Source: Escherichia coli (GTDB lineage Bacteria > Pseudomonadota > Gammaproteobacteria > Enterobacterales > Enterobacteriaceae). Taken from it: a DNA stretch of 64,000 bases. Position 1 is the first letter of the stretch, and the number at the start of each line of letters is the position of its first letter. The translations under genes and the position numbers were made by a program. Below are positions 46,814 through 48,569 of this stretch, piece after piece. A model generated the notes under the pieces. It saw only the letters and a list, made by a program, of their open reading frames with translations. It was not told the origin of the DNA and made no database searches. Location: NCBI RefSeq assembly GCF_044324875.1, contig NZ_CP172185.1; one strand, given 5' to 3'.

Positions 46814-46820
46814 TGCTATT

Positions 46821-46848
46821 GCAGGATGGCGTTCATGCGCCATCCTCT
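46821..46848 (+). terminator. Hairpin after glpQ
   Basis: Stem aggatggcg/cgccatcct with loop ttcatg, 10 bp after the glpQ stop; no strong T-tract follows. Confidence 0.4.
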
Positions 46849-47033
46849 GCTAAAGCGAAATAATGCTACTTCCGGTTGTTCTATTCATTAACCGGTGCAT
46901 CCTGTTAAAAAAGATGCCAACATATTTGCGTAAAACTCATTCGTTAAGAAAGCTAACACTGGGCATTGTTATTCCTTAAACAGTATGAATTGGGTTCAAT
47001 AATAAATTGTATTGCAGTTTATACTGTAAAGTA

Positions 47034-48140
47034 TTATTCGCATTTCGGGAAAGTAAAGAAAATATTAATGTATCTTATTAATTTATTATATTGTTCTTGA
47101 GTGAATGCTATTTGCACACCTTCAGGATAATATTCACCAGTAATAACCAGTTGTCCATTGCTGTGTTGTACCATTAAACCTTTTTTTTCCTTTGGATCTT
47201 CAAACTTAGAATTATCAAACGTGAAGATGTTATTTTCCTGTTTTGAGTAAGCAAAGAAATCTCGTGTATAGCTGAAACTATCATTTATTAATGGTGCTAA
47301 CTTTTTGTCGGCGATATCGATAAGCTCACCACTTAATTTATTGATGTATTTCATTTGGTTCAATTTTTTCTGCGCTTGTACAATTTGCTTGTAGGTATTT
47401 TTAATTTCCTTAGAAGAATTCTTGAATTTATCATAGCGTTCCACGGAGGATGCGTATTTGTACCATTCTGTATTTTTCTCAGAATGTAGTAGCAGGTCTG
47501 TATATTTTTTTTGATCGCTGTAAAGTTGACTTTTAATACTTTCCTCACTGCTGGTTTTATAAGGTTTATCAGAGCTGTTTATTTTTGAAATGTCTTTTTC
47601 TGTCGGTGACTGGACCGTGTTGTGGATATTTTCTTTTATAACATGTTCATTGATGATGTTAATTGCAGTTTCATATTCATTTAAGTTTATTGTTCTTTGT
47701 GAAATAAACCCTTCTTTGCTTTCGACACTCAAAATACCTTCGTTGTTTTCACCTCGGGTAAAGGTAAGGGTATAGGGTTCATAATCCGCTGCAAATTCAT
47801 TTTTATACGTTATGACATGTTCGACAAAATGTCTTATTGGTACGAAACCATAACTGTGAACGTCAATTTTTTGGGTCTTGATACTATCAATTGCATCTGA
47901 GGCTTTCGTGAAAAAAGCCAATAAATTAGCTATACTGTCTGCTGAAGTTGATAACCCGTATCTACTTTGAGATATTTTTAGAAACTCATCGCAAAAAAAC
48001 TCAAGTTTCGCGGTTTGTTGTGATTCTTTGTAAATTTCTGCTGGTTGCAATTTATTATTTTGTAAAATATTACAGCGAGATAAGTGAATAGATGTATTTG
48101 GAATAAATGATTCCTTGTATTGTGAGTTAACAAGATACAA
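47034..48140 (-). CDS. Hypothetical protein, 368 aa, no recognisable domain; AT-rich and probably horizontally acquired
   Basis: Uninterrupted 1107-nt ORF in strongly AT-rich DNA, where stop-free frames of this length are improbable by chance. Lys/Asn/Ser/Glu/Tyr-rich, no signal peptide or transmembrane segment, no motif I recognise. First usable start is a TTG with no clear Shine-Dalgarno, so the true start is uncertain. Confidence 0.6.
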   Translation of the reverse strand: MYLVNSQYKESFIPNTSIHLSRCNILQNNKLQPAEIYKESQQTAKLEFFCDEFLKISQSRYGLSTSADSIANLLAFFTKASDAIDSIKTQKIDVHSYGFVPIRHFVEHVITYKNEFAADYEPYTLTFTRGENNEGILSVESKEGFISQRTINLNEYETAINIINEHVIKENIHNTVQSPTEKDISKINSSDKPYKTSSEESIKSQLYSDQKKYTDLLLHSEKNTEWYKYASSVERYDKFKNSSKEIKNTYKQIVQAQKKLNQMKYINKLSGELIDIADKKLAPLINDSFSYTRDFFAYSKQENNIFTFDNSKFEDPKEKKGLMVQHSNGQLVITGEYYPEGVQIAFTQEQYNKLIRYINIFFTFPKCE

Positions 48141-48173
48141 TCTAATCTTTGCAAAATATATTCACTATCAAAT

Positions 48174-48392
48174 TTAGCTCATTTTATTACGAAGACCTTT
48201 ACGCATGGTAGAAAGTATCATTATTGTTAATAAATACGGTAATAAGTAACAAACAGATATTGATAACTTCCCTGAAAAGTTACTAGGTATCCCACTTGAA
48301 GATTGAGAATGGCTCCAGAGTAAACTGTGTACTGTTCGCCGGAGTGTCATTACTCTCAACGATCGGTTTTGACAGTGAGTCGGGCGCTTCAT
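48174..48392 (-). CDS. Possible small protein (72 aa), basic N-terminus and hydrophobic C-terminal segment
   Basis: ORF immediately upstream of the 368-aa ORF on the same strand and in the same frame, separated from it by four stop codons within five codons. One hydrophobic stretch (LSISVCYLLPYLLTIMILSTM). May be spurious or a remnant. Confidence 0.2.
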   Translation of the reverse strand: MKRPTHCQNRSLRVMTLRRTVHSLLWSHSQSSSGIPSNFSGKLSISVCYLLPYLLTIMILSTMRKGLRNKMS

Positions 48393-48569
48393 ACCGATTT
48401 CTACCTGGAGTCATTGTCACTTCTCCCAACTGGATAAATATATATCGCCAATTCACAAAGTGGGCCAAAATCAGGTGAAAACGAATTATTACGCCTGGTA
48501 AAGGCTATAGTACAACTAAGTGTGGCGAATCAGGCAGTCTTGCATTTGTCATCAATCTCATGTCTTACA

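Follow-up and report, generated by a model that had tools for sequence, protein, structure and literature searches.

What is the AT-rich block that separates glpQ from a LysR-type regulator gene in some Escherichia coli chromosomes, and does the long reading frame it carries encode a working protein? The question arises in a 64-kb stretch of contig NZ_CP172185.1 (assembly GCF_044324875.1), here called the window, in which a block of about 1.7 kb holds one long minus-strand open reading frame (ORF) for a protein without recognizable family. The best explanation as a whole, which we hold with moderate confidence, is that the block is an old xenogeneic single-gene islet whose protein is real but dispensable, barely constrained, and lost piecemeal. 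On this explanation, the block would have been inserted once, in the common ancestor of E. coli sensu lato, and carriers and the ancestral empty site would since have existed side by side, a presence/absence polymorphism that homologous recombination has reshuffled.

The AT-rich block and its insertion site

The block departs strongly in composition from its surroundings. In 300-bp windows, G+C dips to 0.29–0.35 across about 46800–48300, and positions 46847–48557 have 33.8% G+C compared with 51.4% for the whole 64-kb window, which places them 4.0 standard deviations under 35 non-overlapping windows of the same size (z = -4.0). The lowest-G+C stretch of 1711 bp in the window (start 46668, 33.5%) overlaps the block. 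These values confirm the AT-rich block of roughly 1.7 kb that an earlier note, made from the sequence alone, had described between glpQ and the LysR regulator, and the G+C deficit, the long stop-free run, and the coding-type codon-position composition given below indicate that the observation is real and not due to chance. The note's description of the flanks as ordinary, G+C-balanced core genes did not hold: the LysR gene (42.8% G+C) and glpQ (45.5%) are both under the window mean, and the pair formed by the LysR gene (48570–49448, minus strand) and an MFS transporter gene (49600–50790, plus strand) is variable in E. coli.

The limits of the block are also narrower than first drawn. The earlier note had used the whole interval between the glpQ stop at 46813 and the stop of the minus-strand LysR gene at 48570 (46814–48569). 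Junctions with K-12 and E. albertii instead delimit an inserted block of 1715 bp (46847–48561, about 34% G+C). On the glpQ side, the insertion point lies directly after a G+C-rich hairpin that follows the glpQ stop (46821–46846, comprising the left arm, the loop, and most of the right arm; GCAGGATGGCG-TTCAT-GCGCCATCCT), and the same hairpin is found in K-12 and E. albertii. It is terminator-like and belongs to the ancestral glpQ/LysR convergent spacer. On the other side, 8 nt separate the block from the LysR stop codon (TCA, 48570–48572, plus strand).

Comparison with sister species shows what the site looks like when empty. In E. albertii, Salmonella enterica, and Citrobacter, the gene order is nrdA-nrdB-yfaE-MFS-LysR-glpQ-glpT-glpA, the LysR and glpQ stops are 42–115 bp apart, and no gene lies between them. 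Syntenic orthologues of the LysR protein share 90% identity in E. albertii, 81% in Salmonella enterica, and 77% in Citrobacter, and others occur beyond these. The spacers of E. albertii and K-12 align base for base and without interruption (...CCATCCTGTC(G/T)CA...); in the window, the 1715 bp are placed between CCATCCT and GTCTTACATCAAA, splitting a spacer of this type. K-12 MG1655 is collinear with the window to 46846 and again from about 48558–48562. Because the outgroups lack the block and the E. albertii and K-12 spacers are unbroken where the window is split, these alignments show an insertion into the ancestral 42-bp glpQ–LysR convergent spacer, between the LysR stop and the shared hairpin. 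The horizontal acquisition proposed in the earlier note is thus supported by the absence of the block from the outgroups, the uninterrupted spacer, its presence in 19% of complete genomes, and the orphan nature of its product. Signatures of mobility were not found: a repeat search detected neither terminal repeats nor a target-site duplication, no integrase, transposase, or other mobility gene is among the block ORFs, and an Rfam search of 46000–50000 at E <= 1 placed no RNA family in the block, its one match being a chance long non-coding RNA hit outside it.

K-12 MG1655 lacks a second stretch nearby, 48817–50683, which covers the 5' portion of the LysR gene together with most of the MFS gene. 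The 8-bp microhomology TTTATCTG present at both ends of this gap identifies it as a deletion in K-12, and the yfaH pseudogene is the remnant that the deletion left. Beyond the MFS gene, inaA (50871–51521) sits between that gene and yfaE in E. coli. No gene is called at the inaA position in E. albertii, Salmonella, or Citrobacter (L016, L017, and L019), and the E. albertii match spans only 141 bp; inaA being absent as a called gene from the outgroups, the locus has gained or lost inaA too.

Within the species, presence of the block is variable. Aligning the locus across E. coli, as the earlier note had proposed, gave 1052 carriers among 5426 complete genomes (19%) with boundaries at 46847–48561, so a block with 33.8% G+C is far from being a resident of essentially all E. 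coli with native-like composition. Nearly all carriers have one copy, which is chromosomal and 90–100% identical; at least 80% of the query, flanks included, is covered in 1045 genomes, on chromosomes only. Both junctions are identical in all 11 aligned loci, and a frameshifted copy occupies the same site in TW10509, which we take to be a member of cryptic clade I. The gene is present in O157:H7 and O55:H7, and the copy in O157:H7 Sakai is ECs3123 (NP_311150.1), annotated as 'hypothetical protein'. The LysR–MFS pair is intact in 1215 genomes, and the K-12-type double-empty arrangement occurs in about 2741. Other arrangements include the block with the LysR–MFS pair deleted (L006, L007, and L008) and the pair on its own, and in O25b:H4-type strains a larger deletion is found. 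Among the matches listed (about 95 rows from five spread or best-hit searches), the site contains the block, nothing, or IS1.

Nucleotide diversity in the block is 0.02–0.06, like that of glpQ. Because block diversity matches that of glpQ and TW10509 carries the block, the insertion seems to be about as old as E. coli, with carriers and ancestral empty sites coexisting since. Compared with strain 1190, the window has 2 mismatches in the block and 1–2% in the flanks, a mosaic identity that points to recombination shuffling the glpQ–LysR region.

Reading frame, start codon, and constraint

The minus strand of the block contains a stop-free run of 375 codons; when the block was shuffled 2000 times, the corresponding run averaged 79 codons and reached 166 at most. 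The orphan frame has a GC1 of 0.38, with GC2 and GC3 at about 0.29–0.30, and a purine at codon position 1 in 64% of codons. By stop-free run and codon-position composition, this is a real coding-like ORF. The earlier note had given it as 47034–48140, encoding 368 amino acids. The frame exists as described, and its start has to be moved: in other strains, the Prokaryotic Genome Annotation Pipeline (PGAP) begins the gene at an ATG at 48104, giving a 356-codon frame (47034–48104, minus strand). A Shine-Dalgarno-like AAGGA motif (48112–48116, minus strand) lies 6 nt upstream of this annotated start and may serve as its ribosome-binding site. The in-frame extension to a TTG (48105–48140, minus strand), which yields the 368-residue version, has no convincing ribosome-binding site, and the TTG at 48140 is probably not the native start.

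The annotated start codon (48102–48104) reads ATT in the window and ATG in all eight other translated alleles. The change is private to the window copy among the 5426 complete genomes, and the remainder of its frame is intact; the window 61-mer around the start has an exact match in none of these genomes and a match with one mismatch in 855. Weak initiation is possible at an ATT that follows a good Shine-Dalgarno motif. Unless the ATT reflects an error in sequencing, the loss of the ATG and the lack of a convincing ribosome-binding site for the upstream TTG make it probable that the window copy is null or is translated only weakly.

A second irregularity concerns an A8 tract (47505–47512, minus strand), which is A7 in O157:H7-type alleles and A9 in L023. 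The O157:H7-type alleles combine the -1 change in this tract with a +1 change about 35 nt downstream (around 47472–47478), which swaps 12 residues and restores the frame. Because more divergent alleles share the frame of the window, the double-frameshift state in O157 appears to be derived. Many non-O157 copies (L001, L004, L006, L007, and L009) carry a PGAP 'frameshifted' flag despite an intact 356-codon frame, and these flags are most readily understood as an artefact of an O157-type reference that has the derived double frameshift. The tract is a slippage hotspot whose length has changed in independent lineages; another A8 tract (47181–47188, minus strand) shows no indel in the alleles examined.

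Constraint on the encoded residues is weak. In pairwise maximum-likelihood estimates, omega is 0.5–1.6 (median about 0.75) for the orphan and 0.02–0.23 (about 0.09) for glpQ in the same strain pairs, and the Nei-Gojobori method gives 0.34–0.97 and 0.01–0.13, respectively. Nine haplotypes differ by 35 synonymous and 88 non-synonymous changes, with no departure from neutral expectation given the transition bias (p = 0.29). Stop-creating changes are absent, with 0 of 124 compared with 5.5 expected (P = 0.004). Variation is concentrated in a hypervariable central linker (codons 159–199; 47508–47630, minus strand), where diversity reaches 0.144 compared with 0.02–0.06 elsewhere. Between allele classes, both the synonymous divergence (dS, 0.46–0.74) and the non-synonymous divergence (dN, 0.27–0.35) of the linker are raised; because dS is raised as well as dN, the linker looks like a stretch acquired from a more distant allele outside the sample, and less like the outcome of relaxation.

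The gene has been disrupted in several ways. One IS1 insertion with an identical junction is present in 228 carrier genomes, L010 carries a deletion associated with IS1, the TW10509 copy is frameshifted by a +1 change, and in L023 a +1 change in the A8 tract at 47505–47512 splits the gene; about a third of the sampled haplotypes are disrupted. Since 81% of genomes lack the block and carriers show the IS1 insertion, the IS1-associated deletion, frameshifts, and the start loss, the gene appears to be a dispensable accessory.

The rival explanation that survives best takes this weak constraint further and holds that the ORF was never functional, a frame that was dead on arrival and is open only because too little time has passed. 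An omega of about 0.75, a ratio of synonymous to non-synonymous changes indistinguishable from neutral, and a whole-block divergence between allele classes (about 8%) close to the dS of glpQ (about 0.10) are all consistent with it, as are the lack of homologues and of a confident fold and the disruption of about a third of the sampled haplotypes. We nevertheless consider this explanation unlikely. A neutral frame would be expected to have gathered stop codons, and none arose where 5.5 were expected (P = 0.004); in O157, the frame lost through a -1 change is regained through a +1 change 35 nt further on; the codon-position composition is coding-like and the 375-codon run far exceeds the shuffles; and variability is much lower in the two terminal parts than in the linker.

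The product, its relatives, and its possible roles

The predicted product has a mass of 41 kDa and a pI of 6.5 and is rich in lysine (10.4%), serine (9.6%), isoleucine (9.3%), and asparagine (7.6%), as well as in glutamate. In agreement with the earlier note, hydropathy analysis revealed no hydrophobic or transmembrane segment and no signal peptide (the Kyte-Doolittle mean over 19 residues peaks at 0.86), and no catalytic domain was found in Pfam or NCBIfam. HMMER searches against Pfam, with the single sequence and with an 11-sequence alignment, returned only a coiled-coil-type match at E = 0.2; NCBIfam, PHROGs, and PADLOC gave no match at E <= 1, and PDB sequences gave nothing significant with phmmer or a profile. 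The profile searches and structure comparison that the earlier note had suggested therefore yielded no family match, and no confident match to a characterised housekeeping family was found.

Larger searches returned the same gene. A word-indexed search of 5.8 billion clusters found 22 proteins, all at least 82% identical, and all those with a named source are from E. coli. An exhaustive HMMER scan of 1.84 billion representatives returned close fragments of the same gene and one match in a 1001-residue cadherin-repeat protein (E = 1.5e-4), which was judged spurious. A scan of 100,044 GTDB species genomes found one locus, L011 (JAIJJM010000334.1, 'MAG: Collinsella sp.'). This is a 3.5-kb contig, 98.8% identical to the E. 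coli locus, and its place in a Collinsella metagenome-assembled genome is almost certainly due to contamination during binning. With tblastn, phages gave nothing, and the sole match among plasmids was rejected as a mislabelled E. coli chromosome. Across these databases, the product behaves as a true orphan with relatives only in E. coli.

Structure prediction added little. AlphaFold2 models reached a predicted local distance difference test (pLDDT) score of 41 for the full length, built from 11 sequences, and 49 for the N-terminal 165 residues, and at these values they were unusable and were discarded as meaningless; Foldseek comparison of the N-terminal 165-residue model with the PDB gave no match below E = 0.1, with TM-scores of at most 0.33. 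The models agree only on secondary structure and, at low confidence, suggest N-terminal helices followed by a three-stranded meander and a helix (residues 111–158). With the same low confidence, residues from about 159 to 183 may be unstructured, residues 184–274 may form long, coiled-coil-like helices, and the C-terminus may consist of a beta-hairpin and a helix. An internal duplication of the two beta-hairpin-plus-helix motifs was considered and dropped, as BLASTP produced no alignment between them.

The earlier note had likened the gene, as a hypothesis only, to abortive-infection and other anti-phage proteins and toxins. In its full form, this reading makes its product either an anti-phage protein that acts alone by abortive infection or a toxin without a partner, kept as a presence/absence polymorphism because it guards against some phages at a cost. 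We judge this to be improbable. The general form is shared with known single-gene systems (PADLOC-DB v2), in that the locus is AT-rich, horizontally acquired, accessory, and limited to one gene, and many defence proteins have no detectable homologues. Fast residue change with the ORF preserved, a hypervariable linker with signs of allele import, and frequent loss and inactivation would also suit a costly gene. The likeness stops there. No family of PADLOC-DB v2.0.0 matches at E <= 1, nor does any entry in Pfam, NCBIfam, PHROGs, or PDB; no nuclease, ATPase, TIR, SIR2, protease, membrane, or other effector-type domain is detectable. The adjoining genes, glpQ and the LysR gene, serve metabolism and regulation and are not part of a defence island or mobile element, no copy was found on phages, prophages, or plasmids, and the gene is fixed at one chromosomal site, unlike typical mobile defence cargo. 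Because the site holds no alternative cargo except IS1 among the matches listed, it does not resemble a defence hotspot, and the anti-phage reading is unsupported. The gene evolves near-neutrally and is frequently inactivated, and with no excess of non-synonymous changes it shows no overall sign of positive selection. As regards a toxin–antitoxin pair, a co-oriented 43-codon ORF does lie 179 nt upstream, the large protein has no family match, and the small ORF matches only E. coli.

A role as a type III secretion effector was also considered and is held to be unlikely. Acidic residues are missing from the first 22 positions, where Ser, Thr, Asn, and Gln are abundant, a composition that resembles type III secretion signals, and the gene is present in O157:H7 and O55:H7. 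This composition is only suggestive. The product has no Pfam or NCBIfam match and no similarity to any known effector family, the gene persists without the LysR–MFS pair (L006, L007, and L008) and in many strains that lack the locus of enterocyte effacement, and an important role is hard to reconcile with its near-neutral evolution and frequent inactivation.

The weakest alternative, that the block is ancestral core DNA lost by deletion in K-12-type strains with no horizontal acquisition, has in its favour that the adjacent LysR–MFS difference is itself a K-12 deletion with TTTATCTG microhomology, that several independent deletions have occurred at the locus (e.g., a larger one of the sequence type 131 (ST131) type), and that the block is as diverse as its flanks, but it is largely refuted and very improbable, given that E. 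albertii, Salmonella, and Citrobacter lack the block, that deletion would have had to restore the ancestral spacer exactly (E. albertii being collinear with the empty K-12 site), that block G+C is 18 points under that of the genome, and that no other enterobacterium has a homologue.

Expression, precedents, and neighbouring features

If the block is an old and dispensable islet, any function of its product would be neither enzymatic nor housekeeping and would depend on bulk properties, for example on the helical region driving oligomerisation. Such a function may be relevant only in some lineages or niches, with many lineages losing the gene. Expression would be only conditional, either from a promoter of its own or by read-through from the LysR gene. 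The insertion now separates the LysR stop from the ancestral hairpin, and read-through from LysR could therefore transcribe the orphan. The orphan also persists in strains that lack the LysR promoter (L006–L008). DNA with roughly 33% G+C and of xenogeneic origin is typically silenced by H-NS in E. coli, and the block is probably bound and silenced in this way. Near-matches to the H-NS nucleation motif TCGATAAATT number 7 in the 1.7-kb block and 71 in the 64-kb window, about 3.7-fold denser in the block; AT-rich DNA of any kind would show such an excess.

The 471-nt region upstream of the orphan folds no better than shuffled sequences (z = -0.6). It contains the 43-codon ORF (48283–48414, minus strand; MTPGRNRYEAPDSLSKPIVESNDTPANSTQFTLEPFSIFKWDT, preceded by GGGAGAAG), which has a GGAG motif, ends 179 nt upstream of the orphan, and is intact in nine of nine alleles. 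Its few changes are mostly non-synonymous, indicating no constraint, and a protein search returned matches in E. coli only. An overlapping 72-codon ORF (48174–48392) was rejected as a gene, since it contains stops in L009 and L012.

Several points weigh against the preferred explanation of a dispensable, barely constrained islet. No stop codons arose and the O157 frameshift was compensated, which shows that some selection keeps the frame open, so that a decaying passenger is not the whole story in every lineage. A near-neutral omega is also typical of fast-evolving conflict proteins. The allele sample consists of nine aligned haplotypes, two of which came from protein hits, favouring intact ORFs. 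The outgroups compared directly were limited to E. albertii, Salmonella, and Citrobacter. H-NS silencing and LysR read-through are argued from composition and from general knowledge of xenogeneic silencing, and a consensus scan, in itself uninformative, detected no promoter of the sigma-70 type ahead of the minus-strand ORF. Finally, the ATT could be a sequencing error rather than a private start-loss mutation.

The block can be compared with known elements of E. coli genomes. It resembles H-NS-silenced AT-rich islets in having about 34% G+C in a genome of 51%, in its absence from sister species, and in its variable presence; the block has no integrase or direct repeats. O-islands of O157:H7 EDL933 are segments specific to that strain when compared with K-12, and one of them adjoins the block, namely OI-97 (z3494-z3495), described in PMC10819331. 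OI-97 is ancestral DNA that K-12 has lost, whereas the block, by comparison with the outgroups, is a true insertion. Taxonomically restricted orphans of E. coli and enterohaemorrhagic E. coli (PMC4765031) are similar in being E. coli-only, free of homologues, weakly constrained, and AT-rich. At 356 residues, the present gene is far longer than the small novel orphans of that study, and it came in with foreign DNA rather than originating in local sequence. It is not among the orphans in the accessible part of the supplementary lists of PMC4765031.

The gene is thus an uncharacterised, lineage-restricted orphan of a familiar kind, and it carries little weight alone, as E. coli has many orphans on AT-rich islets. 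Its value is as a clean and datable long orphan (356 residues) without a relative among about 15 billion predicted proteins. The exact base at which it was inserted can be identified, and decay can be traced over about 1000 genomes through IS1, frameshifts, start loss, and a compensated frameshift.

The remainder of the window runs from nuo, men, and arn through rhm, glpABC, and glpTQ to nrdAB, yfaL, and gyrA, as read from its collinearity with strain 1190. A second AT-rich stretch lies at about 12000–14200 (0.33–0.37 G+C) and contains a minus-strand ORF of 402 residues (12765–13973), whose counterpart in strain 1190 is annotated as an ElaD/SseL-family deubiquitinase. An AT-rich spacer at about 55400–55900 (down to 0.30 G+C) separates nrdA from yfaL, and ypaB is annotated there in strain 1190 and K-12. 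The ORFs at 34478–35260, 35263–36480, and 36498–37826 are taken by position as rhmR, rhmD, and rhmT, respectively. At the rhm position, strain 1190 (L021, 34816–36577), otherwise collinear with the window, has ISEc46 (IS200/IS605 tnpA and tnpB) and partial genes.

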